Shown: positions 2,508 to 20,000 of the stretch, one piece after another
How the letters are laid out: each line of letters opens with the position of its first letter
How positions within the stretch are numbered: position 1 is the first letter of the stretch
Virus record (IMG/VR): IMGVR_UViG_3300023237_000001
From: an uncultured virus (IMG/VR IMGVR_UViG_3300023237_000001)
Taxonomy: Duplodnaviria > Heunggongvirae > Uroviricota > Caudoviricetes
Length of the DNA: 20,000 nucleotides
Direction: 5' to 3' (one strand)
Made by a program: the position numbers and the translations under genes
Notes under the pieces: model-generated
Told to the model about the DNA's origin: nothing
What the model saw: the letters and a program-made list of their open reading frames with translations, nothing else
Databases searched by the model: none

Positions 2508-2971
2508 AGATATTGATCTTCAACTGTATCTATTTCTTCTCGTTTTAGGATTATAAATTGTAGTAAAGGTTCTTCTGATGCCTGGGCAGTCTGAGATTCA
2601 CCTAATGCTTTATATGTAATCCCTTTTATAATAAACCTATCGGCACCTGGATCAAAGTTTAAAAAACCATCTGAGTTTGCAAAACCATTATCAGATAAAT
2701 ATTTAATGTTTAAATACAGTAATAAATTTTGTTTATCAATTTCACCTGAATCTGTGGTTTTAGTACTTGGCCATGACCTATAATCATTATATTGTATTAA
2801 ACCTAAAAGTTTTGAAGATTTTGGTTTTAATAAAATATCTTCTCCATGGGTTGTGATTCCTTTGTTTATGTATTGCATAAGGGTAACTTCTTGTTTAAAG
2901 GCATCCTCATGGAAGTTATTAATAATATCTTTATAACTATCCCATTCATTTGTGGTTATATAACTTGGCAT
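2504..2971 (-). CDS. Putative head closure / stopper protein (SPP1 gp16-like)
   Basis: 155 aa, beta-rich, with a DRFIIKGITYKAL pattern. It sits directly after the adaptor gene. Confidence 0.6.
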   Translation of the reverse strand: MPSYITTNEWDSYKDIINNFHEDAFKQEVTLMQYINKGITTHGEDILLKPKSSKLLGLIQYNDYRSWPSTKTTDSGEIDKQNLLLYLNIKYLSDNGFANSDGFLNFDPGADRFIIKGITYKALGESQTAQASEEPLLQFIILKREEIDTVEDQYL

Positions 2972-3780
2972 TATCCTTGAGATGATATATTTTGATTGCC
3001 ATTACCCCCACAACAACCTGCTGTATTGGTTTTAGGTATTTGACCAATTAGTGGACCAATTACCACTTTAAATTTATCGCAGATAACTGGGATATGGATA
3101 TTTAATCTTTTTGCCAATGAACACATTGACCTGGATACTGAATCTATAGCACCTCCACTTTTTAAAGATGATGAAGAGGAACCGGCTGTATCATTTTCCC
3201 CATACCATTGTACTTCTGTGGGACCGGTAACAATTTGTTTAATTGCCCTGGATGAAGAGCTGCCTCCATTATTAGCCGCTATAATAGATGAGTTACCTTG
3301 TTGAATAAGTATATCATAGGCTACCATAGATGCCACTAATGAATTTTCTAGTGGTTCATAGTATAACTCATTAAAGATATTAGCAGATGGTATAATGTGG
3401 TTAACTAGAGGATGGATAAATAATTGTTGTTTTTGAATTAACCCGGCAAGTTCTGCCACATCATATACAACGTTTGGTGGGATATATTGATTTACTAAGG
3501 TATAAATGCTTTGAGATAATACTGGCCCAGCAGCTCTTACCCCTACAGGTAATGTTATACTGGTGGTACCTCCGGTATTTGATACAGATAAGGTAACTGT
3601 AAAAAAACCATCTCTTGTAAAATCCTTGGATGGATTTTGTAATGAGGAGGAAGTTCCATCTCCAAAATCCCATTGCCAAGCTGTCGGTCCATTTGATGAT
3701 AAATCTTGAAAGACTACTACAAATGTACCTTCAGTTGGTACGTATGTGAAATTTGAAACTGGTATAGCTGCTGGTGCCAT
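2971..3780 (-). CDS. PKD (Ig-like) domain fused to a putative head-tail adaptor
   Basis: The N-terminal ~80 aa contain the PKD signature FQDLSSNGPTAWQWDFGDGTSSSLQNPS...GFFTVTLSVSN. The C-terminal part has AIKQIVTGPTEVQWY, resembling adaptor beta-hairpin motifs, and lies at the adaptor position after the MCP. Confidence 0.75.
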   Translation of the reverse strand: MAPAAIPVSNFTYVPTEGTFVVVFQDLSSNGPTAWQWDFGDGTSSSLQNPSKDFTRDGFFTVTLSVSNTGGTTSITLPVGVRAAGPVLSQSIYTLVNQYIPPNVVYDVAELAGLIQKQQLFIHPLVNHIIPSANIFNELYYEPLENSLVASMVAYDILIQQGNSSIIAANNGGSSSSRAIKQIVTGPTEVQWYGENDTAGSSSSSLKSGGAIDSVSRSMCSLAKRLNIHIPVICDKFKVVIGPLIGQIPKTNTAGCCGGNGNQNISSQG

Positions 3781-4365: not shown

Positions 4366-5475
4366 TTAATCAATTAATACATTCTGAGCAGCATCCACAT
4401 CATATTCATCTGGGAAACCATCAGTAGCAAAATCTACGGATTTATCCAAGATTAAAACAGAGTCATCCATAAGCTTAGCAAATCCAGTTGTTAAACTAAC
4501 ATAGAAAGCTTCCGATTGATTTGAAACAATCCTTTCTGATTCAAGCATAAGAGGCCTAGCATTAAATTTAACCAGGGCTTTGGTTGGATCAACCATTACT
4601 TCTTGATCAGCAGGTATATTCCCATGTATATAATAGGATGCAGAGTTTGGAACAGGAGTCTTAAGATCCAGATTGGAATTTGTTGTTCCCTGAGTTTTAA
4701 GCTTGAATTCATCCATGTCCAATGTATCAAGGGCAGAAGCTTCTGACCCAATAATAACATTTGGTATTCTACCCAACCTTGACATTCTAATCCAGATTCT
4801 AAGCATATCTCTATATGCCTTCGTTCCCGGAGTTTCAACCCCAATTATTGGTGCTGAACCTGAACCATCAGCCTGTTCTCCATTGATAAGAGTATTGATT
4901 GCCAATACATCTAACCCATGTCCTAATTTTACCCCAAAATCTCTTAAGAAGATTGCAACCACATCCAATGATACATAATTCTTAACTTCGTCAGTAATCT
5001 TAATACCTCTCCCCATTTTGAATAGAGATATTGATTTTTGACCATAGCTAATAGTACCTAATGAAATTGTTTCACCTTCATTAACTTTCTTAGGAGTTGC
5101 ATCAGACATATTAATATGTGGCATGATAGCTTTTAAACCATCCAACTGTTGTTCAGAAGCAGTTATGGCATTCCAAATCGGAGATGTTCTTAAACCAGTT
5201 AAGATAGCTTCTCTAAAAAGTTCTGGAATGATCCAAGCAACATCTGCTTGCCCATATGTATAAAGATTCTGAATTGTATCAGTAGATGTATCGATTCCTA
5301 TTTCTGCAAGGAAAGAATCCATTGTAACACTTTCATCATCAAATGATTCTTGGACTGTTTCGATAAAGTTGGCATCCACAGGATTATCTTTATCACCTCT
5401 AAATCCATCGGCTAACTTAACGGTTTGTTCTATCTTACCGTTAAATCTTGATTCTTGATATTTTTTAATATCCAT
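4366..5475 (-). CDS. Major capsid protein (HK97 fold)
   Basis: 369 aa after the protease/scaffold and cement genes and followed by a strong terminator. It has WIIPE, KVNEGETI (V.EG..I), KMGRGIKITDE and D...IN.LING motifs typical of HK97-like MCPs. Confidence 0.9.
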   Translation of the reverse strand: MDIKKYQESRFNGKIEQTVKLADGFRGDKDNPVDANFIETVQESFDDESVTMDSFLAEIGIDTSTDTIQNLYTYGQADVAWIIPELFREAILTGLRTSPIWNAITASEQQLDGLKAIMPHINMSDATPKKVNEGETISLGTISYGQKSISLFKMGRGIKITDEVKNYVSLDVVAIFLRDFGVKLGHGLDVLAINTLINGEQADGSGSAPIIGVETPGTKAYRDMLRIWIRMSRLGRIPNVIIGSEASALDTLDMDEFKLKTQGTTNSNLDLKTPVPNSASYYIHGNIPADQEVMVDPTKALVKFNARPLMLESERIVSNQSEAFYVSLTTGFAKLMDDSVLILDKSVDFATDGFPDEYDVDAAQNVLID

Positions 5476-5966: not shown

Positions 5967-7499
5967 TTATTTCTTGTTTTTTAATTTCTTATCCCTAAGC
6001 CTTGACTTAATCTCAGCTGCAGATAAAGGGGTATCATCATTACCCCCTGGTGGAGTATCACTTGGATTAATAATACCATCAGCATTTAAAGATATAGAAG
6101 CTCTACTTATATCAGTACCTTTGCAGGTATTACAAGAAGCTTGGAATTTACCTTCCGCTTGTTTTTCAAAACTTGCAAGTAAAGAAGTAGCCGTTGTGTA
6201 ATTACCCTCGGCAATAATGGCAAGCATAGAGTCATCTTCTTTAGCATCATCACCCTGTAGTGCTGTGTAAAGTTCAGTAGCTCTAGATTTAACTGCCGCC
6301 AAAGCCTTATCTGCAATAGGAGCTTTTTCTAAAAGAGATTGATTCTCTGTTGTTAAATCTCCTACCTGAGTGGTAAGTTCGGTTACTTGTGTTTGAGCAT
6401 CAGTAACATCTGCTTCTAATTTTACAGCCTTATCAGCAACTTCTTTTAATGAGGTAAGATGATTTCCAAATTTTTCTTGGAAATTTTCCTCTGTAATTTC
6501 ATTGTCTGTGTCTAGAGTAAAACCAATTAGAGCCGCTAAGGCTATGATATCTTTCATACTTGTTGTTTTATGATTTTCTGGTTTGTTATTACTTATTGAA
6601 TTAGGTGTTGTGTTATCTGATAATGAGGTTGTATCATTTTTCCAATCCCAGGCAAAAGCTTTCTTTCCCTTGGTGTTTTCGGTTTGGGTTGCTGATAAAT
6701 TATATACTGCATCAGAATATTTAGGATTAACAATCATTCCATTGTCTCCAATTTTTTGGGCAAAGACATCAGCACCGTGAGATACAAGTGAAGTTTCATG
6801 ATAAGATAATACGGAAGTAACTATTCTTCTTATTAATACCCCATCCGCATCATAAGTAGCAAGTTTAGACCAAAATTCGTTGTCATCCATATCACTATGT
6901 GACTTTGTCCATTTAAACCTAACAGTTACAGAATTAGAATGTATAGAAGGGGGATCCATTAAAATACCCCTGGCAATTCTGGGATTAGATTTAGCGTCTA
7001 TCTTTAATATACCATTAATACCCGCAGGTATAATAATTTCTTTTCCTTCATTTACTGTGGTTAATTCTTTTTGCCAAAATACATCCTTTACAGCCCCCAG
7101 TGCATTACCTACTGGAGTTTCATGGTCTGGGTTAACAGTTTGACCAACTAATAAATTCATAGTGGATTTTAATACACCCTTACCACCAAAATCAATTGGG
7201 TTCCATTGTTTATGTACGATGGCAGCTGATATTAACCTAAAAGTTGGTTCTATAAACTCGTCATCTGTAGGATTTAAATCCGCTGCCGTAACATCTGGGT
7301 AGTATGTGGTATAATTCGGAGAAGACATATCAAATAAACCCAATCGCTGTAAATCCATATTTTTAACATGGTCAGCAAGCTTTTCTGATATTTGAGTAGG
7401 AGTTAAAATACTGGGTTTAAATCCCGCTATTAAAGAATGTCCGGAAGCTAAATCAATCTGATCAACAAACTCCCTGTTTTTTAAATTATCTTTAGCCAT
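5967..7499 (-). CDS. Prohead maturation protease fused to a scaffolding domain
   Basis: The N-terminal half has herpes/HK97-type protease motifs (VNPDHETPV His, HSNSVTV Ser, ETSLVSHGAD). A polar linker precedes a helical/coiled-coil C-terminus (VTDAQTQVTELTTQVGDLTTENQSL). Located between portal and capsid genes. Confidence 0.8.
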   Translation of the reverse strand: MAKDNLKNREFVDQIDLASGHSLIAGFKPSILTPTQISEKLADHVKNMDLQRLGLFDMSSPNYTTYYPDVTAADLNPTDDEFIEPTFRLISAAIVHKQWNPIDFGGKGVLKSTMNLLVGQTVNPDHETPVGNALGAVKDVFWQKELTTVNEGKEIIIPAGINGILKIDAKSNPRIARGILMDPPSIHSNSVTVRFKWTKSHSDMDDNEFWSKLATYDADGVLIRRIVTSVLSYHETSLVSHGADVFAQKIGDNGMIVNPKYSDAVYNLSATQTENTKGKKAFAWDWKNDTTSLSDNTTPNSISNNKPENHKTTSMKDIIALAALIGFTLDTDNEITEENFQEKFGNHLTSLKEVADKAVKLEADVTDAQTQVTELTTQVGDLTTENQSLLEKAPIADKALAAVKSRATELYTALQGDDAKEDDSMLAIIAEGNYTTATSLLASFEKQAEGKFQASCNTCKGTDISRASISLNADGIINPSDTPPGGNDDTPLSAAEIKSRLRDKKLKNKK

Positions 7500-8971
7500 T
7501 ATGCTTTTTTATTATCTTTGCGTTTTGGTTGTTCTTTCTTTTTATCCCTAGACCCCCTATCTGATTTACCAGCCTTCTTATTAGCATCTTCCTTTTTAGA
7601 AGCTGGAGCCATAACATTTTTATCTCGGCTTACCCTAGGTTTTTCCTGATTGGGTTTTTCATAGTTGGTTTCTTCAGAAAATTGTTCTTGTCCTATTATA
7701 CCTTGGTCATACAAGGCTTGTAGATTACGTATTTTTATTTCTCGAGCTTGTTGAGATTTAAGATCATCCGTTATAGTGGATGGTTTAAATTCTGTTCTTA
7801 ACCCCTTAGGTCTAAATCCTGATAATGTTAATTCCAAAATATAAAGGTCATCAAAGAAATCTGCCACCATTCCTTGAACATTGGATAGTTGAGATAACAT
7901 TTTGGTAAATACAATAGATAAGGCAGTTTCAGAACCAGAGCCTTCTCCTAAGAAAGCCACGTTATGTTTTAAACCATTTGCTACTTGTTGTTTTGAATTC
8001 TTTACTAATACATCTACCCCTTGTATATTAGAGGTGGTTGAATGAAAGTCGTATTCATGGTCATCTTTATAACCAACTGAAATACCTTCTTTAAAACCCG
8101 CGGCAACATTTTCTTTGGTTTCATTTAATAACCCCTTTAATCTGTCTTTATATTGGGCAACGCTTTCTTGACCCTCCATATCTGGCTTTTCTAAACCAAC
8201 CTGTAGGAAACCTAGTACCCCCAGCAATTCAAGTACGTTATCTATATTCTCATTCATTTTACCTTGACTAGCAATAGCTTTTAAAGAGGCTAAAAATGGA
8301 GGAACCCCATAAGGAATTTCTTCATCAGTTAATAAGGCATTATAATGATAAGTTTCTGTGTTTAGCTTTAAATACCCAGAACTATTAACCCCATTTCTAT
8401 CTGGAGAATATTTTACGGCTTGATAAGGTACATATCTACCTTTTTGTATTGCAAATTTAATAAGCTCTGGATTAACCATACCTATTTTTTCTATCCCTTT
8501 TAAATTCATCTTAACAATGTTTTCAGCAGAGATAGCACCACCTACCCAAATTTGAGCAATTAGTTTTGATGCTATACCATTAACCCCAGAAGTTCCATCC
8601 ATCCATTTTTTAGATACCTTCTTAAGGTGTTTACGCATTTTATCTTGAACATCAGCTGGAGTATCTTGATCAAATCTTATATGGTGACCGGTGTTTGTTA
8701 ATTGAACAATGTCCATTAACGCTAACCCCATATCCTCATTTACCTTATATAAATCCCGTATTACAGGAATACATTCTTGGTTAAATTTAGGGTTTACATA
8801 TTTAACTTGATCTTTTAATACTGATAAAGGGTTATGCCCTTCATTAATTTGAGAAGATCTTCCCTTGGGTATATTAATTACCGGCTTTCTTTTATTCTCA
8901 ACTGTAGCGGGCGTTTCTTCCTTCCTATTGAGGAAGTAGTTTAATATTTTATTATTATTTATTTTGGCCAT
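7499..8971 (-). CDS. Portal protein
   Basis: 490 aa immediately after TerL, with a PYGVPPFLASL motif, late LYDQGII, and a basic disordered C-terminal tail. Confidence 0.85.
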   Translation of the reverse strand: MAKINNNKILNYFLNRKEETPATVENKRKPVINIPKGRSSQINEGHNPLSVLKDQVKYVNPKFNQECIPVIRDLYKVNEDMGLALMDIVQLTNTGHHIRFDQDTPADVQDKMRKHLKKVSKKWMDGTSGVNGIASKLIAQIWVGGAISAENIVKMNLKGIEKIGMVNPELIKFAIQKGRYVPYQAVKYSPDRNGVNSSGYLKLNTETYHYNALLTDEEIPYGVPPFLASLKAIASQGKMNENIDNVLELLGVLGFLQVGLEKPDMEGQESVAQYKDRLKGLLNETKENVAAGFKEGISVGYKDDHEYDFHSTTSNIQGVDVLVKNSKQQVANGLKHNVAFLGEGSGSETALSIVFTKMLSQLSNVQGMVADFFDDLYILELTLSGFRPKGLRTEFKPSTITDDLKSQQAREIKIRNLQALYDQGIIGQEQFSEETNYEKPNQEKPRVSRDKNVMAPASKKEDANKKAGKSDRGSRDKKKEQPKRKDNKKA

Positions 8972-10474
8972 TTATTGAGGTGCTATAACGATTTGTTTAA
9001 GTTTTCCTTTACGGATAAAATTGGTTATACATTTACCAATGATTGCATCATCATGGTAAGTATTTTCTTCATCTTCATCTCCAGATGATCTTCCTTCTTT
9101 ACCTAATGCCACAGCTTTATTTCTTTCGTTATAAATAAAGGTATAAGCTTCTTGTACAAAGAAAGGATCTTTAACTATAATTTCTTCATTCCTTATATCG
9201 GTTTCTAATTCATCTATAATAACCGGCCTATTTTTACTTGTGGTTAACCAACCGGGAATTTTTTGAATTTTACCTTTCTTTTTTCCCTTCTCTTTTACAA
9301 TCTGCTCCGAGTAGTAAAGGTTTTTATATCCGTTTGATTGAAGTTGTGAGGTTACTGCTAAACCTATATCATTAGCTTCGGGGCCTACTAGGGCATTATT
9401 ATATTTTTTTCCCCAGCTTGCAAGTAAGTCTGAAAGCTTATCCACAGGTATCTTACCTTTGAATACCGCAACCTCTTCGCCGAATTTATCCATTATTGTA
9501 AATGCGGAATAATCTCGTGACCTACCAGTTGATACATCTGAACCTATAGCATATAACATATTTTCTTTAGGTTTATTAAATACCAATAATTGACCATTTT
9601 CATGTTTACTTATTACTGGGTAGTCGGGTAATAAATCTTCAATTGCTTTAATATTTTCAAGGTCAAATACAGAATAACCAGATGTTAAGAAATCACCATC
9701 TATTTCTTGGGCTGTTCTTCTTGGGCCTAATGCTTGGGCCATAGCTATATACCAGGCATCATCCCTTTCGGGGTGCATCTGCCATCTTAATCTTATGGGG
9801 TAAAACCCTGAACCCCCGGCACAAGCATCTACCCATTCTTTATGAAAGAAATTACCAATTCCGTAAGGGGTGGAATTTAATATTGCGGAACCCCCTGTTG
9901 ATAAAGTAGGGAATGCTGCAGCCCAAATTTGGTTAGCCCATCTTACTATAGCCGCTTCATCAATTACTAAAAGTGATACAGCCTCTGATCTACCAGCATC
10001 TTCTGTTGTTGGTATAGATGTAATTGATGAACCATTAGAAAATATCATTTCTTCGGCAGTTCCAAACTCCCCTGTTCTACCATTAACTATCTTTACCATT
10101 AAATGCTCCGGTAAATTCTTATACATATATTTAATCTTACGTAAAACCTTTTTAGCAACCCTATCTTTAATTGAAATTATTTGTATGTTTTTATTGGGGT
10201 GCATCATGGCCAACCATAAAGAATACATGGCAATTAATTCTGTAAGGCCAGCTTGTCTAAATTTTAATACAATATTAAATCGGTTTTTTAAGAAAGCATA
10301 TAATACCTTCTTTTGGTAATCATAAAGTTTAAATTGAGTTTTCCCGAGTATTGGGTGAATTACATAAATAAAGGAAGAGAAAAAGAAAGGATCCTTACTC
10401 GCTTGTAATAATTCATTGAATTGCCTTGTGGTTAAAGCCTTCTTAATTATGTTTTTTAAATTGTCTCTTGCCAT
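8972..10474 (-). CDS. terL: Terminase large subunit (Terminase_6 / T4 gp17-like ATPase-nuclease)
   Basis: Adenine-binding LYDYQK, Walker A variant KFRQAGLT, Walker B LLVIDEAA, coupling motif STPYG, and RNase H-like nuclease motifs IGSDVSTGRSRDYS and HDDAII. Confidence 0.95.
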   Translation of the reverse strand: MARDNLKNIIKKALTTRQFNELLQASKDPFFFSSFIYVIHPILGKTQFKLYDYQKKVLYAFLKNRFNIVLKFRQAGLTELIAMYSLWLAMMHPNKNIQIISIKDRVAKKVLRKIKYMYKNLPEHLMVKIVNGRTGEFGTAEEMIFSNGSSITSIPTTEDAGRSEAVSLLVIDEAAIVRWANQIWAAAFPTLSTGGSAILNSTPYGIGNFFHKEWVDACAGGSGFYPIRLRWQMHPERDDAWYIAMAQALGPRRTAQEIDGDFLTSGYSVFDLENIKAIEDLLPDYPVISKHENGQLLVFNKPKENMLYAIGSDVSTGRSRDYSAFTIMDKFGEEVAVFKGKIPVDKLSDLLASWGKKYNNALVGPEANDIGLAVTSQLQSNGYKNLYYSEQIVKEKGKKKGKIQKIPGWLTTSKNRPVIIDELETDIRNEEIIVKDPFFVQEAYTFIYNERNKAVALGKEGRSSGDEDEENTYHDDAIIGKCITNFIRKGKLKQIVIAPQ

Positions 10475-11160
10475 TATTTAATCCTTAAAGCTGCTCCTAT
10501 GGTTAAAAATAGATCGGGGTTGGATTTAACTGTTACTATGGAGTTAGCCTCAACCAAAATTGTTTTATAATTTACCTGATACCTTAACCCAATGTAGGGA
10601 TTTTTATTAAGTATGGAATAACCAGCGGTACCATAGAGTTCGCTTATTAAATTTGGATCAGGATTTTTGGCTTTATCATATATTAAACTATCCCCGGTAT
10701 GGGTGTAGTCATACTTATTTAAAAATAAAGGGTATTTACTTGTTTCTATACCCCCAGATATATTCAAAAGGGTTAATTCTAGCTCGTTTTGGGTAAGTCC
10801 TAGAGTAATTAACTTTGGTTTATTAGGGAAATTAACCAGATAGTTTTTTGCAATTTCTAGAGAATCTTTAAGTTCATCCACTAAAAGAAGGATTGAATCA
10901 GGGGTAATTTCTATCCGGGTTGGTATATACTCTGGTAAGTATTTTATAACCTGACTGGGTGGGGCGTATTGACCTTCCCTAATAATTTTTTCCATCTTAA
11001 CCAGAAAGTCGGGTGAAAATTCTTTGGGAAGGTAAATGGTATCTGTGGTATTGCTATGGTCTTTTACCTTTACTTCCTTAATTCTTGGGTTATTATAAAA
11101 CCAATATAATAAGATGATGATAAGGATAAACTGTATTAGCATTATTACCTTTAATTTCAT
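10474..11160 (-). CDS. N-terminally membrane-anchored protein, candidate spanin-like lysis accessory
   Basis: N-terminal hydrophobic helix VIMLIQFILIIILLYWFY, a TTDTIY motif, and C-terminal alternating beta-strands (LYGTAGYS, PYIGLRYQV, LFLTIGAALRI). Adjacent to the endolysin. The function is inferred. Confidence 0.55.
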   Translation of the reverse strand: MKLKVIMLIQFILIIILLYWFYNNPRIKEVKVKDHSNTTDTIYLPKEFSPDFLVKMEKIIREGQYAPPSQVIKYLPEYIPTRIEITPDSILLLVDELKDSLEIAKNYLVNFPNKPKLITLGLTQNELELTLLNISGGIETSKYPLFLNKYDYTHTGDSLIYDKAKNPDPNLISELYGTAGYSILNKNPYIGLRYQVNYKTILVEANSIVTVKSNPDLFLTIGAALRIK

Positions 11161-11374: not shown

Positions 11375-12052
11375 TTATCTCCTATGTTTTTCTTTAGGGT
11401 TAGAATGGTTAACCGTTCTTTTTTTAACAGGCTTTATAAAATGATTATTCAAGGCCTTTATAAAATCAGGTTGAGGGAATATATCATCTTTATCCTTTCT
11501 AACTTTTGAATGAGCATAAATACCTGGCTTTCTATAATCAATTACAGATTGATCAAAATCAAATATCTTATCAAAATTATCCGGTAGAGTTATTCCTGGA
11601 AATCTAATTAATAATTCTTCTGTTAATTTAACCACAGCTATTATCTGGGCCTTAGTTATTTTTTGGTAATATCGGTTACCTCTAAATAATTTTTTCAACT
11701 TACATACTTCAACCTCAGGTACTATTTGTTTATAGGCATCATAAAACTTATTTCCTTTTTTGGTTAACCTACCCATAGAAACAACCTCAATTCCAACCCC
11801 ATGCCTTTCATGGAAATTATCATCTCCTTTAATTCCTAAATGATAAGCAAAGGCTTCAGGATTAAAACATTCTACCACTTGTCCTTTTCTACCCACTAAA
11901 TAAGCGGTACCGACTCTAGTCTTAGTTTGATTCCACCAATTCCATGAAGATAACCAGGAAGATGATACTGTATGATGATACCATAAAGAAAATTTATTTC
12001 GAGTAGCCGGTAAATACTGACCCTTATCCAGGTATTTTTTAATTATTTTCAT
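11375..12052 (-). CDS. Endolysin, N-acetylmuramoyl-L-alanine amidase (Amidase_2 / PGRP fold)
   Basis: Zn-amidase motifs YHHT, AYLVGRKG, AYHLG, GIEV and AHSKVRKDKDDIFP. Confidence 0.88.
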   Translation of the reverse strand: MKIIKKYLDKGQYLPATRNKFSLWYHHTVSSSWLSSWNWWNQTKTRVGTAYLVGRKGQVVECFNPEAFAYHLGIKGDDNFHERHGVGIEVVSMGRLTKKGNKFYDAYKQIVPEVEVCKLKKLFRGNRYYQKITKAQIIAVVKLTEELLIRFPGITLPDNFDKIFDFDQSVIDYRKPGIYAHSKVRKDKDDIFPQPDFIKALNNHFIKPVKKRTVNHSNPKEKHRR

Positions 12053-13055
12053 ATTCCTTTATTTTGTTTTTAAACCATAATCCAATCTCGTAAGGCGGGC
12101 ATTTAGTTACTGTTACTCTTGCTTTATTTAACCAGTAATTCCATTGTTCATCATCATAATGTAATTTAAACTTTTCGGGTATACCCTGTATAGTGGCTAA
12201 TTGCCTTGGTGATAATGCATTACCTTTATGATCAAATTGTCGGGTTTCCTTACGGGCGGTCATTGGTGGTTCATCCCTCATATTACGATATACCCCCGGT
12301 AAATTTTTCATTTTAGTACCCGGCATTGCCCAGCGTTTTTCACCCTTATACTGTTTATTCCAAACCTTTTTTGTTTGTTTTAAGGTTAATTGTTTACCAT
12401 CAATATACATAGGTACCAATTTATCGGGGTCTTCTCTATAATTATTATCAAATGCCAAAGCCGCTTCAATCATTAATTCCCCCGCAGTGGTAGGCCTGGT
12501 TACTAAAGGTACAAACTTAAAAATTTTATCTGCTTTTTTACCTTGATCTTTTCTTATACCAATTAATACCAACCTAATTCTGTTTACCTGTGAATTACCG
12601 AATTCTTTAACAGAACCTTCTATAGTTTTAAACCTATATTCAGAAGATAATAATTCAATCATTTGAGTATAGGTATTTGTTTCTTTAAACTTAATTAGGT
12701 TTTCCATTAAAAACACTTTAGGTTTAAAATGTTGAACAGATGATATATATTGAGCTATTGAAACATTATCTTTGGGATCATGGGTCTTTTTTGCCCGGGA
12801 ATAAGATAATATTGAACTATGCCCACAATCGGGTGCGCCTATTATATAATCTATGCTACTGGGCATATCCATAGCTTCTTTGTAGTTATTTAAAGTCTTA
12901 TAATAGGGGATATTATAAAAATTGGTAAACCATTGTTCTAAATGCTTAGTATGGAATGCCACCCGCGGTTCAATATTCCCAATAACATATTTCTTTTTAA
13001 AGGGGTGTAATAAAACTCCATTACCAGCACAAACCCCTAGGACGGTATACTTCAT
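12039..13055 (-). CDS. Divergent C5-cytosine DNA methyltransferase-fold protein
   Basis: Motifs occur in canonical order: I VCAGNG, II NIE, IV GAPDC (C77), VI FLMENL, VIII QVNRIRLVLIG, IX LSPRQLATIQGIP, X VTKCPP. The gene overlaps the endolysin start by 14 nt. Confidence 0.85.
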   Translation of the reverse strand: MKYTVLGVCAGNGVLLHPFKKKYVIGNIEPRVAFHTKHLEQWFTNFYNIPYYKTLNNYKEAMDMPSSIDYIIGAPDCGHSSILSYSRAKKTHDPKDNVSIAQYISSVQHFKPKVFLMENLIKFKETNTYTQMIELLSSEYRFKTIEGSVKEFGNSQVNRIRLVLIGIRKDQGKKADKIFKFVPLVTRPTTAGELMIEAALAFDNNYREDPDKLVPMYIDGKQLTLKQTKKVWNKQYKGEKRWAMPGTKMKNLPGVYRNMRDEPPMTARKETRQFDHKGNALSPRQLATIQGIPEKFKLHYDDEQWNYWLNKARVTVTKCPPYEIGLWFKNKIKEYENN

Positions 13056-14804: not shown

Positions 14805-15590
14805 TTAGGTATTATGTTGTTTAAGCATACCCCTTTCATTGTAAAATACATGTAGTGATGTTATATGCATATATAATTTACCAGGAGGTATGCCAGTGGT
14901 TTGACCTACATACTGGGTTAATCGTGATGCTAGGTAAACATCATCTCTAAAATGCCTTAAGTAATCGCATGACCTAATATAATAATGGCAATCTAATTTT
15001 CCTCTTACATTATAAAAATGGTAACCCAAAGTACAAGGCACCCTTTCATTCATAACATTACCCGTATCTTCTGGAAACCATATAGGTAAATATGCTTGCC
15101 GAGTAGTTGGGTCATTCCTTAATAATTCTATTATATCACCAAGATCACCAAGATTATATCTTATACCCTTATTTATGGAAATATTCAATCCTATTTTTAG
15201 CATTTGTAATGATAAATGTTTATCATCAAACCTACCGGCAAGCTTAGGCCAAATTCTTTCCATATAAGAATGAGAGAATTGATTATTGGTATTTCTAAAT
15301 TTATCGTCTTCTGGTTTACGTTGGTAAAACCTCCAATTTTTATATTCATTACCTGGGTTTAAAGGTAAACCGCCAATTCTTTCTTCGAAATGATTTTCTG
15401 CCCAAGGTAATTGGGGTTTTAGTAAGTGTAATTCATCAACGGTTTCGGGAATTGGAAATTCGAATAACACTGGAGATAATTCAAATGTATCATCTGGGCT
15501 TTGTATTGATTGCCATGTTTTTTGTTTTACTTTAATACCATGTTTTACAAATGTGTTTTTCAAATTTGCTATGTTACCTTCTCTATACAT
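14805..15590 (-). CDS. Thymidylate synthase-superfamily enzyme, probably dCMP-specific (hydroxymethylase/methylase-like)
   Basis: DPTTRQ, catalytic VPC (C186), RSCD (206-209), Asp217 at the E. coli ThyA Asn177 position, and SLHVF. The N-terminus (HFEERIGGLPLNPG) is unlike canonical ThyA. Confidence 0.85.
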   Translation of the reverse strand: MYREGNIANLKNTFVKHGIKVKQKTWQSIQSPDDTFELSPVLFEFPIPETVDELHLLKPQLPWAENHFEERIGGLPLNPGNEYKNWRFYQRKPEDDKFRNTNNQFSHSYMERIWPKLAGRFDDKHLSLQMLKIGLNISINKGIRYNLGDLGDIIELLRNDPTTRQAYLPIWFPEDTGNVMNERVPCTLGYHFYNVRGKLDCHYYIRSCDYLRHFRDDVYLASRLTQYVGQTTGIPPGKLYMHITSLHVFYNERGMLKQHNT

Positions 15591-15613
15591 TTTAAGGGGT
15601 TTATCTATATGTA

Positions 15614-15794: not shown

Positions 15795-16049
15795 TTAATA
15801 AGGGGGTTCTGCTATATATTGGGGGGAATTCTTTTGTAATACAGCTAAGGCATTATCTAAATGAGTATACCGTTGTAGGTGAGCAGCTATAATAGGAATA
15901 TAGATCTGAATATCAACAGCTTTAATGGGAATAACTATATCCATAAACCCATTAAAAAAACGGAATTTATAGATATAGTTATTGTAATAAAATACAGGAT
16001 CATGTAGAGCTATATTTATTAGTTGATCCTGCATAAAGGTATGATACAT
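15795..16049 (-). CDS. Hypothetical protein
   Basis: 84 aa, with a TAATG overlap with the upstream ORF. Confidence 0.6.
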   Translation of the reverse strand: MYHTFMQDQLINIALHDPVFYYNNYIYKFRFFNGFMDIVIPIKAVDIQIYIPIIAAHLQRYTHLDNALAVLQKNSPQYIAEPPY

Positions 16050-16645
16050 TAAATTCCCAGAATAGGTAGTAATGCACCAAGATCCATTACCGTAACATTA
16101 CCATCATTATCCATATCAAATAATAACTTAGTTTCGGTTAATACATTTTTCGTTAATGATTGATTGTTAACCGGTATAGTAACATCAGTACCTTCTTCAA
16201 ATAAATCTACCGGTAAATAAAGGGTTGGTACTTCTTCAATATTGGTATGCCAGTTATATTGAATATAACACCAGCTGGAATATCTATATACGATTCCCAG
16301 ATTATGGTTATATAAAAACGAATCCATCCATATCCTTTCATCTGAAAATCCAGGATCCATATCACCCAATGTGGGGTTAAGTTGTTGAGACATAAGCTCA
16401 CCATTTAAAAAATTAAATTGAGTCATATCCGCCATACCTGATATATCTTGTATCCAAGAAGTAGTTCTAACTCCCATACCAAATTTTTGGGTTTTATTGC
16501 TAAAATCTTGATTATGATTATTCATGGTAAATACGGTAATATCATTTAGATTAGTAAGCTTTTTACCGAATTGTTTTTGTAGGGCTTCTAAAATAGCTGG
16601 ATTATTTTTAATCAGGTATTCTTCTATAAAATGATCTGTTGTCAT
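16049..16645 (-). CDS. Hypothetical protein with a C-terminal dockerin/EF-hand-like Ca-binding loop
   Basis: 198 aa ending in FDMDNDGNVTVMDLGALL (DxDxDGxVxxxDL). Confidence 0.65.
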   Translation of the reverse strand: MTTDHFIEEYLIKNNPAILEALQKQFGKKLTNLNDITVFTMNNHNQDFSNKTQKFGMGVRTTSWIQDISGMADMTQFNFLNGELMSQQLNPTLGDMDPGFSDERIWMDSFLYNHNLGIVYRYSSWCYIQYNWHTNIEEVPTLYLPVDLFEEGTDVTIPVNNQSLTKNVLTETKLLFDMDNDGNVTVMDLGALLPILGI

Positions 16646-19549: not shown

Positions 19550-19735
19550 ATATTATAATAGTACTTTTCCTAGAATCCTGTTAATCCTTAATCCGAAATA
19601 CTATGTAAAACTAAATATTCCAAAAATTTTTTTATTGGCCTGAAGATCCTGATAAGGATCTGAAAGGGGGTATGAGCTCAGGGGGTGAAAGGTATGTAGG
19701 ACAGGGAAGTAGGTATATAAAGGGCCTTATGGGAA

Positions 19736-19813
19736 TAGGCTGTAGGCTGTAGGATGTGGGATGTAGGTAATCAGGAATAAGGTTGTAGGTAATCAGGAAT
19801 AAGGTTGTAGGTA
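19736..19813 (+). repeat. Tandem repeats: degenerate 7-mer TGTAGGN array followed by a perfect 22-bp direct repeat (about 2.4 copies)
   Basis: taggc-tgtaggc-tgtagga-tgtggga (19736-19761), then TGTAGGTAATCAGGAATAAGGT at 19762-19783 and 19784-19805, then TGTAGGTA at 19806-19813. Confidence 0.9.
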
Positions 19814-19881
19814 GGATTTACAAAGCTGCAGGTACAAAAGTTGTGGTAGTGGATTAGGGGGCTGGTTGCCTATAATATGCA

Positions 19882-19911
19882 AAATTAACCCTTTTTTATG
19901 GGGGTTAATTT
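19882..19911. other. 10-bp inverted repeat / hairpin in the non-coding region
   Basis: AAATTAACCC (19882-19891) / GGGTTAATTT (19902-19911). Confidence 0.7.
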
Positions 19912-20000
19912 GTTAGTAACTTTTATTTATTTCTTGGGATAAAATAAATCTTTTAAAATTGCTTTACCTAATGATAAAATTATATAGGATAAGAAAAGAA

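Follow-up and report, generated by a model that had tools for sequence, protein, structure and literature searches.

A predicted deoxycytidylate C5-modifying enzyme of the thymidylate synthase fold, from an uncharacterised viral clade, in the genome of an uncultured tailed phage

The gene at 14805..15590 and its aligned active site

The DNA considered here (the window) is a stretch of 20,000 nucleotides from an uncultured tailed virus (IMG/VR record IMGVR_UViG_3300023237_000001). The gene in question lies at positions 14805..15590 on its minus strand, where an open reading frame (ORF) of 261 amino acids with an ATG start encodes a thymidylate synthase (TS)-fold enzyme of an uncharacterised viral clade, predicted to modify deoxycytidine monophosphate (dCMP) at C5. 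The protein matches the PHROG family phrog_160, "thymidylate synthase", at E 1.3e-32, and the Pfam family PF00303 (Thymidylat_synt) at E 7.7e-14, the latter match being confined to residues 149-257 (profile positions 111-219 of 266). An AlphaFold2 model of the protein, with 119 homologues as input, reached a predicted local distance difference test score (pLDDT) of 93.5 and a predicted template modelling score (pTM) of 0.91. When this model was used in a Foldseek search, 396 Protein Data Bank (PDB) matches were obtained at E<=0.001 with TMq up to 0.70, and the matches listed were TS-superfamily entries only. VIA-align superposed model residues 4-261 on residues 1-221 of the Escherichia coli and M. 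tuberculosis ThyA enzymes with a Z score of 19 and a root-mean-square deviation of 2.7-2.8 Å over 214-216 aligned residues. Going by this modelled fold and by the equivalents of the catalytic Cys, of Arg166-Ser167-x-Asp169 and of His207, the 261-residue protein is a member of the TS superfamily. The N-terminus, which an earlier reading of these letters (the original prediction) had called non-canonical, is indeed too divergent for Pfam over the whole N-terminal half, but it is not a different fold, as this half also adopts the TS fold in the model. The other end is shortened: the protein stops 12 residues past Phe249, and the last ~43 residues of ThyA, which include the C-terminal folate lid, have no counterpart. 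We would like to note that ranking by fold was tried and set aside as a guide to the nearest enzyme, since the TS-superfamily chains all tie at Z 18.7-19.3 and the fold thus does not discriminate among them; T4 gp42 was not among the matches listed.

The residue on which the prediction turns is Asp217 (codon 14940..14942, minus strand, as are all codons given here), which falls at the pyrimidine-selecting position, Asn177 of E. coli ThyA and Asp179 of T4 gp42 (deoxycytidylate 5-hydroxymethyltransferase; PDB 1b5d, 6a9a). This placement, already part of the original prediction, was recovered by translation and by three independent alignments, HMMER, MAFFT and hhalign, all of which set the second Asp of "RSCDYLRHFRDD" on ThyA Asn177. 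Against solved TS chains, HMMER paired "yirscdylrhfrddvylas" without gaps with "yqrscdlglgvpfniasys", so that the second Asp of "RDD" lies on the Asn of "PFN". MAFFT was run with E. coli ThyA from NC_000913 as the reference, and hhalign, comparing the family profile with E. coli ThyA (probability 95.2, E 2.8e-8), gave the same Asp217-Asn177 pairing as MAFFT. Conservation was counted over 268 clade sequences aligned to the family hidden Markov model, with fragments that miss a column left out of that column's count. Asp occupies the position in 256/256 covering sequences, the other 12 of the 268 being fragments with a gap, and in 80/80 TS ORFs (the window and 79 viral loci). Since every covering relative carries it, Asp217 is no chance substitution. 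A 17-position active-site signature is likewise identical in all 80 of these ORFs.

The remaining aligned positions can be given in the same register. The catalytic nucleophile had been said to be kept, and it is: Cys186 (15033..15035) stands at ThyA Cys146 and is present in 261/262 clade sequences. The residue after it, Thr187, replaces ThyA His147, with Thr in 181/262 sequences and Ser in 80/262. Three residues before the Cys, Arg183 (15042..15044; Arg in 262/263) aligns by MAFFT and by hhalign to T4 gp42 with ThyA Leu143 and T4 gp42 Asp145, a site treated as product-determining in passages of PMC13326640 and PMC6400193. Counted from the ORF start, His107-Ser108-Tyr109 (15264..15272) places Tyr109 at ThyA Tyr94 and T4 Tyr96 (243/257) and His107 at T4 Ser94 and ThyA Val93 (His in 230/257). 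The segment at 14952..14975 runs from Arg206-Ser207-Cys208-Asp209, aligned with ThyA Arg166-Ser167-Cys168-Asp169, through His213, aligned with Gly173; conservation is 256/256 for Arg206, 241/256 for Ser207, 254/256 for Asp209 and 244/256 for His213. Trp86 (ThyA Trp80) is kept in 249/253 sequences and Arg164 (ThyA Arg126) in 265/266. The HxY motif reads HVF, just as had been noticed before: His247-Val248-Phe249 (14844..14852, with His247 at 14850-14852 and Phe249 at 14844-14846) aligns with ThyA His207-x-Tyr209, and His247 is found in 252/252 sequences. Relative to ThyA, the window protein therefore has Gln165 replaced by Ile, Tyr209 by Phe249, His147 by Thr, Leu143 by Arg, Gly173 by His and Asn177 by Asp. 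ThyA Arg21, an N-terminal phosphate ligand, and Arg127 are not conserved in the clade.

These residues bear on the simplest alternative, that the gene encodes an ordinary thymidylate synthase converting deoxyuridine monophosphate (dUMP) to thymidine monophosphate (dTMP). The TS fold and the catalytic Cys would suit such an enzyme, and the 103 full-length phage matches are mostly annotated "thymidylate synthase", but these labels are automatic transfers and not tests. Asp replaces Asn177 in every covering member, His147 and Leu143 are changed, and the C-terminal tail is gone. All seven NCBIfam TS equivalog models score far under their cut-offs (the highest score being 41.2 bits against 174.55). 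We regard an ordinary thymidylate synthase as very improbable, and the view that this is not a housekeeping thyA stands.

A large clade apart from the assayed enzymes

The window protein belongs to a widespread family. A word-indexed protein search returned 4109 homologues at E<=1e-5, the closest of them other than the protein itself being 71% identical and most others 45-55%, and a profile search through the representatives of 1.84 billion clusters (50% identity) found 206 of them at E<=1e-30, 812 at <=1e-10 and 4109 at <=0.001. In IMG/VR, at least 550 stretches encode clade members. Among GenBank phages, 230 records match, of which 103 cover >=80% of the query, all at <60% identity; at the nucleotide level, the window as a whole matched no phage record by megablast. 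The GenBank members, nearly all annotated "thymidylate synthase", include the Brevundimonas phages Polewnik and Strzyga, the Mycobacterium phages Muddy (gp46), FF47, JacoRen57 and NoShow, 68 Gordonia phage records, Microbacterium phages, the Pseudomonas phages PMBT14 and Lebethron, and Serratia phages. In-frame insertions occur in some clade members (P0123, P0162, P0178 and P0199): P0123 has an intein (Hint/Intein_splicing), and LAGLIDADG domains are found in proteins ~390-415 amino acids long.

The phylogeny called for by the original prediction was built with IQ-TREE from 28 clade members and nine reference enzymes: E. coli ThyA, RB69 td, T4 gp42, the RB69 gp42 homologue, SPO1 gp29, PaMx74 gp52, the Xp12-like DoCa10 gp58 and two genes of Bacteroides phage BF503P2. 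A branch of length 5.65+1.1 with support 100/99 parts the clade from all nine, and thus from ThyA, T4 gp42, the RB69 5-hydroxy-dCMP synthase, SPO1 gp29 and PaMx74/DoCa10. Because the branches are long, the tree shows the separateness of the clade and not a sister group.

Comparison with assayed enzymes gives a mixed picture. T4 gp42 shares with the window protein the TS fold, the selector Asp179, a Cys-Thr pair at the nucleophile, the lack of a C-terminal lid, and the Tyr96 and Trp82 equivalents; the window's "FRDD" also corresponds to T4 "FRND", with an Arg at T4 Arg177, which binds the folate glutamate tail (PMC6400193). The RB69 gp42 homologue is likewise without a C-terminal tail. In contrast to these likenesses, T4 Glu60 aligns to Gln or Asn, Gly is replaced by His213 and Arg124 by Gln165, the profile match reaches only probability 77.9 and E 1.8e-5 (hhalign), and the two do not group in the tree. 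E. coli ThyA and phage td (EC 2.1.1.45) resemble the window protein in fold (Z 19) and in the equivalents of Cys146, Arg166, Ser167, Cys168, Asp169, Tyr94, Trp80 and His207, but the window protein has Asp217, Arg183, Thr187 and His213, lacks the last ~43 residues, and has an N-terminal half unrecognisable to Pfam.

The 5-methyl-dCMP synthases of Xanthomonas phage Xp12 and Pseudomonas phage PaMx74 share Asp177 with the clade, as well as, in many clade members though not in the window, the gene order NTP (nucleoside triphosphate) pyrophosphatase - TS - dCMP deaminase. Unlike the window protein, PaMx74 gp52 and DoCa10 gp58 keep a long C-terminus, have Asn at the third position ahead of the Cys and Pro right after it, and group with ThyA and td in the tree; ThyA, td and the PaMx74/Xp12-like methyl-forming enzymes keep ~55 residues more than the window protein does. 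The flavin-dependent 5-hydroxy-dCMP synthases (RB69 gp48, DLP3 gp80 and AfhB of phage HY126; PDB 9iqc, 9iqu) have the TS fold, Asp177 and a short C-terminus (VIA-align Z 18.8), but the window protein lacks their D169N exchange, and where they have Glu before the Cys it has Arg. Muddy gp46 and its counterparts in Gordonia, Microbacterium, Brevundimonas, PMBT14 and Serratia phages are 38-48% identical over 75-97% of the query and share both the clade (100/99) and the signature; they differ in their surroundings, a cassette of kinase, dUTPase, TS-fold paralogue, deaminase and PolA, whereas the window gene lies among small unknown ORFs.

A large clade labelled "thymidylate synthase" thus carries the cytosine selector, yet none of the three product classes assayed so far accommodates it. 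The Asn-to-Asp principle itself is already known; what is new, judging by the alignments, is a widespread clade with a conserved predicted Arg/His/His pocket that fits no assayed class. For the window alone the gain is modest, namely a re-annotation and a testable prediction, but the product of any one member would assign thousands of genes.

Predicted substrate and product

Our preferred reading, at a probability of roughly 0.6, is that the gene encodes a putative folate-dependent pyrimidine C5 transferase acting on dCMP and not on dUMP, from a large clade of phage enzymes. To our knowledge, Asp177 TS homologues are the entry point for every known phage pre-replicative cytosine modification (5-hydroxymethyl-, 5-methyl- and 5-hydroxycytosine; 5hmC, 5mC, 5hoC). 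The original prediction of an enzyme making 5-substituted dCMP fares well in its first part, as action on dCMP is well supported by the residue rules and by the clade context, but which product is made is something we can only infer.

The substrate is addressed by published rules. According to passages of PMC13326640, PMC8670742 and PMC6400193, exchanging Asn177 for Asp switches TS to dCMP, and T4 gp42 needs Asp179; with PMC5175136, these passages give the Asn-to-Asp rule for cytosine nucleotides an experimental grounding. By this rule, Asp217 points to a cytosine substrate. Ser167 with Arg126 marks enzymes acting on deoxyribose, as opposed to the Ala/Lys pair of the cytidine monophosphate (CMP) enzyme MilA (PMC5175136). 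Ser207 and Arg164 are of the deoxyribose type, the MilA pair being absent, and so point to a deoxyribose substrate. That the substrate is a cytosine deoxynucleotide we consider probable. Action on cytosine in another form (CMP, dCTP or a polynucleotide), or a role as a non-catalytic partner, might be read from the unconserved phosphate ligand Arg21 and Arg127 and from Phe249, which in place of Tyr209 loses a hydrogen bond to the 3'-OH (the role given to Tyr209 in PMC5175136). MilA, however, needs Ala/Lys for CMP according to the same account, the catalytic residues here are strictly conserved, and the usual clade neighbours are genes of the mononucleotide pool (deoxynucleoside monophosphate (dNMP) kinase, dUTPase, deaminase); this alternative therefore seems to us highly improbable.

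For the product, the published rules give no answer, because both product positions are occupied by Arg183 and His107. In the relevant passages, Leu143 versus Asp/Glu correlates with a methyl versus a hydroxymethyl product (PMC13326640), and a hydroxymethylase signature has been proposed that consists of Asp/Glu three residues before the Cys together with Ser/Thr two before the Tyr (T4 Asp145-Ser94; PMC6400193). One product class can be set aside: D169N is described as the mark of flavin-dependent 5-hydroxy-dCMP synthases (PMC13326640, section 28), and since Asp209 is kept at this position, the window protein is not predicted to be one of them.

A hydroxymethyl product, as made by a dCMP hydroxymethylase, is our tentative choice, held at slightly less than even odds, and the reaction could be pictured as follows. 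By homology, Asp217 would hydrogen-bond and protonate cytosine N3/N4 and so select dCMP, while Ser207 and Arg164 (deoxy-type), Arg206 and His247 would grip the deoxyribose phosphate. Cys186 would add to C6, and C5 would attack the iminium of 5,10-methylene-tetrahydrofolate, the folate being bound by Asp209, Trp86 and Arg215, the last in the place of T4 Arg177. Tyr109 would aid removal of the C5 proton, and departure of the folate would leave an exocyclic methylene. With no C-terminal lid to seal hydride transfer, water would most likely add to this lidless site in place of a hydride, giving 5-hydroxymethyl-dCMP; His107 and His213, which are specific to the clade, may activate this water, with Arg183 nearby. 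Kinases and the phage replicase would then insert the altered cytosine into phage DNA. Whether the altered base reaches virion DNA we put at even odds.

A dCMP methylase like the Xp12 and PaMx74 TS homologues, whose 5-methyl-dCMP would replace cytosine with 5mC or, once deaminated, supply thymidine nucleotides with no need for a dUMP-dependent TS, is an unlikely alternative, though one with several points to its credit. It shares Asp at position 177; a non-acidic residue three before the Cys is linked by the published rules to methyl products (PMC13326640); an AT-rich phage (31-36% GC) needs much dTTP; and 5/7 deaminase-linked Asp177 TS homologues made 5-methyl-dCMP in the study 10.1101/2024.12.05.627091. 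The lid that seals hydride transfer, however, is missing here and kept in PaMx74 and DoCa10, and the C5 pocket is polar (Arg183, His107, His213) and not hydrophobic. The window protein shares just 26% identity with PaMx74 gp52 across 98 residues, and the tree places the clade apart from PaMx74/DoCa10. PaMx74 has a dihydrofolate reductase (DHFR) gene two genes away, whereas none was found near the 79 clade members by tblastn with the PaMx74 and RB69 frd queries over 1.32 Mb, a search of low sensitivity. The absence of DHFR there is weak evidence for a use of folate that does not oxidise it.

New C5 chemistry, in which another nucleophile adds to the exocyclic methylene or another cofactor is used, would yield a new modified cytosine nucleotide. 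Twelve ThyA residues lie within 6 Å of C5, Gly173 among them, according to PMC13326640, and six of these are kept in the window protein and six changed. Three clade-conserved exchanges (Leu143 to Arg183, Gly173 to His213, Asn177 to Asp217) match no assayed class, His107 replaces T4 Ser94, and Glu is missing at the aligned Glu58 position; the flavin-dependent 5-hydroxy-dCMP synthases provide a precedent for reuse of the TS fold. Set against this, Asp169, Trp80 and the T4-like folate-tail Arg are kept, as ordinary folate chemistry expects, the D169N of the flavin enzymes is absent, and Arg183 may simply stand in for the lost phosphate ligands Arg21 and Arg127. We think such chemistry distinctly unlikely, and similarly doubtful is the specific proposal that the clade makes an undescribed C5-substituted dCMP, with a predicted Arg183/His107/His213 pocket replacing the water-activating Asp/Ser pair of T4 gp42. 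Were it true, an undescribed C5-dCMP clade would imply a new DNA base occurring widely among phages that infect Actinobacteria, Proteobacteria and uncultured hosts, including the therapeutic phage Muddy with its gp46. Cytosine modifications decide the fate of phages facing restriction, CRISPR and modification-dependent defences, and a modified cytosine in phages such as Muddy would matter for host range, sequencing and engineering.

Several observations count against a dCMP hydroxymethylase-like enzyme feeding modified cytosine into DNA. The proposed hydroxymethylase signature is replaced by Arg183 (262/263) and His107 (230/257), so that, unlike T4 gp42, the clade has Arg for Asp145 and His for Ser94; in T4 gp42, D145N abolishes activity, and Asp145 and Ser94 are both required (PMC6400193). 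The column of the catalytic Glu58 of ThyA (Glu60 of T4) holds Gln60 in the window protein and N175, D39, Q14 and S6 of 249 in the clade, in an alignment of low confidence; an invariant Glu70 lies near, with Gln60 in the coil ahead of the helix (63-71) that bears Glu70 in the AlphaFold2 model. Our spatial statements on residues rest on alignment to positions described in papers and not on model coordinates. No published assay of Muddy gp46 or its relatives was found in literature searches, and three clade motifs were absent from four supplement files of PMC8670742. The readable stretch is 30 kb (the window and 10 kb past its end) of a 76,139-bp contig, and no dNMP kinase, dCTPase/dUTPase, dCMP deaminase, glycosyltransferase or DNA polymerase was detected in it. 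The one neighbour kept near TS in the 71%-identical relative (L004), and the only one in common, is a C5 DNA-methyltransferase-like gene (12039-13055, minus strand; PF00145, E 2e-18). A C5 DNA methylase would be redundant if every cytosine were replaced; if active, it speaks against a full exchange of cytosine before replication, though not against a partial one.

The search for partner genes suggested by the original prediction (kinase, dCTPase, glycosyltransferase, polymerase) thus came back empty for these 30 kb. In the 10 kb beyond the window, 0/20 ORFs had a Pfam match, and the 20.5 kb around the relative L004 yielded neither a deaminase nor a kinase, pyrophosphatase, glycosyltransferase or polymerase. 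A tblastn search with deaminase, MazG-like, TMP kinase, dUTPase, Metallophos, PolA and hyp306 queries (hyp306 being a protein described below), taken from other clade loci and Muddy, gave a best E of 0.032 against the window, L097 and L004. The prediction of a base-modified genome is accordingly supported only in part, drawing on the partner cassettes of other clade members and not on partners in these 30 kb. A check for restriction-site avoidance was uninformative, all sixteen 4-bp palindromes having |z|<3 in the 30 kb.

Gene neighbourhoods across the clade and other features of the window

Neighbourhoods were surveyed by clustering the ORFs at <=6 kb from TS in the 79 IMG/VR loci and the window and scanning cluster representatives. 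As many loci nearly duplicate one another, these counts cannot be taken as independent. The first arrangement (type A) runs helicase - MazG-like - "hyp306" - TS - dCMP deaminase - UDG/PolA (UDG, uracil-DNA glycosylase) - TMP kinase - gp32 - RecA. The deaminase cluster lies at <=6 kb from TS in 31/80 loci and directly downstream in 29, and the other partners occur in 21 (hyp306), 26 (UDG-PolA), 18 (MazG-like) and 10 (kinase) of the 80. Muddy has this type of order, with gp49 kinase, gp48 dUTPase, gp47, gp46 TS, gp45 deaminase (a dCMP deaminase by phrog_174, E 5e-53) and gp44 Pol I, and PMBT14 and Gordonia phage Dre3 have the Muddy-type set of kinase, dUTPase, TS, deaminase and PolA. The neighbourhood of Polewnik is related (NTP pyrophosphohydrolase - hypothetical protein - TS - DNA polymerase), kinase and deaminase not being annotated there. 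The type A set is the one that T4 employs for cytosine replacement, in which a dNTPase and a dCMP-modifying enzyme are accompanied by a deaminase and a dNMP kinase. On cytosine-modified metavirome contigs, as described in 10.1101/2024.12.05.627091, Asp177 TS homologues are enriched and the domains co-localising with deaminases are thymidylat_synt, PRA-PH, DNA_pol_A and exo1, a set that the type A neighbours match.

The same order also speaks for the methylase alternative, as many clade members have an NTP pyrophosphatase upstream and a deaminase directly downstream, just as in PaMx74 and the Xp12-like DoCa10; a deaminase was not found in the readable 30 kb, however, nor around L004. A tie of the UDG-PolA neighbours to "T-modified genome" polymerases was considered and dropped, since the passages of PMC13697223 concern SP15-like phages with dUMP-type TS homologues and offer no link.

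Type B runs c13 - MGS-like - metallophosphoesterase - TS - three small conserved ORFs, with the first small ORF in 40/80 loci and the phosphoesterase in 28/80. At 0.5-4 kb from TS, several type B loci also carry genes of amidoligase type, R2K ATP-grasp (L015, L020, L026, L031) or glutamine-synthetase-like (GlnS-like), and genes for NUDIX hydrolases (GlnS-like and NUDIX in L033, L035, L058, L070). Type C, found at six loci, runs dUTPase - DUF6378 - TS - deaminase - C5 methyltransferase - Asn-synthase-like. A GT1 glycosyltransferase gene follows TS by 7-8 bp in three loci, and GT2 genes lie within ~2 kb.

In phage DP SC_6_H4_2017 (75.5 kb), a distant relative, the portal is 40% identical to the window's, and the methylase, terminase and portal genes follow in the same order. 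Two dUTPase-like genes and a hyp306 homologue (hhalign probability 99.85) stand before its clade TS, which shares 32% identity with that of the window; after it come an IspD-like cytidylyltransferase, a LicD-family transferase and a PolA with an intein, and a P-loop kinase lies 10 kb on. The IspD-like gene (E 1.4e-26) and the LicD-family phosphotransferase gene (E 8e-39) lie between TS and the polymerase at 9427-11047 of locus L105 (49427-51047 of the record). Such a pair may attach a phospho-alcohol to a hydroxylated base, although our literature search turned up nothing that connects LicD with DNA modification in phages. The presence next to TS of transferases requiring a hydroxyl acceptor is circumstantial evidence for a hydroxymethyl product. 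For new chemistry, the unusual neighbours of some members (IspD/LicD, Asn-synthase-like, ATP-grasp/GlnS-like) and the second TS-fold gene, highly divergent, that many members have immediately upstream can be cited as support. The intein of the DP SC_6_H4_2017 PolA carries an HNH domain.

This second gene, hyp306, encodes a "hypothetical protein" of ~260-330 amino acids directly upstream of the clade TS, and is a very divergent TS-fold protein. It is present in 21/80 loci, in Muddy and in DP SC_6_H4_2017, examples being L002 11291-12184 (Muddy gp47), L071 8765-9736 and L105 7255-8040. Its AlphaFold2 model (pLDDT 70.5) matches only MilA, AfhB, T4 gp42 and TS chains (E 4e-7 to 3e-4), and it has an invariant Cys, Arg and Asp that line up with Cys146, Arg166 and position 177, respectively. 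Its profile found no PDB relative by HMMER sequence search and matches the TS clade at an hhalign probability of only 10%. In the window no hyp306 was found, hhalign giving a probability of <0.1 against window 16049-16645 and L097 7591-8664. In many phages, the clade TS may work with this Muddy gp47-like tandem paralogue, and the tandem pair possibly forms a heterodimer. PMBT14, Dre3 and Polewnik have unannotated genes of similar size at the hyp306 position, known by size and place alone.

The window itself is a section of a tailed-phage genome with 31-36% GC. The profile scan assigned a major capsid gene (4366-5475), a protease/scaffold (5967-7499), a portal (7499-8971), a terminase (8972-10474) and an amidase (11375-12052), and the opposite side of the TS gene is taken up by many small ORFs in a row, none with a family match. 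The C5-methyltransferase-like gene lies 1750 bp from TS, and a homologue lies 3-1750 bp from TS in 8/80 loci. In six aligned homologues its motif IV reads P-[D/E]-C-G, with motifs I, VI and VIII recognisable; the usual form of motif IV in C5 methyltransferases is P-C-Q. Its adjacency to TS was considered as a functional link and rejected as unproven, given that DP SC_6_H4_2017 keeps the methylase-terminase synteny with its TS 43 kb away. The proximity of the two genes in the window may reflect a module boundary.

Upstream of the TS start codon, positions 15591-15613 are without a Shine-Dalgarno-like purine run. Translation initiation poor in Shine-Dalgarno sequences is associated with Bacteroidota, and the absence of such a run together with the 31-36% GC may hint at a host of this kind, such as a member of the Bacteroidota. 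In the structural module, a protein with a PKD domain (2971-3780, minus strand; PF18911, E 5e-14) is probably an Ig-like domain decorating the capsid or tail. At 19759-19802, between same-strand early genes, two tandem 22-nt repeats (GG[A/T]TGTAGGTAATCAGGAATAA) are accompanied by further GTAGG-rich repeats. They sit inside a gene-free stretch of ~500 bp (19550-20000) that may be a regulatory or origin-like iteron region.

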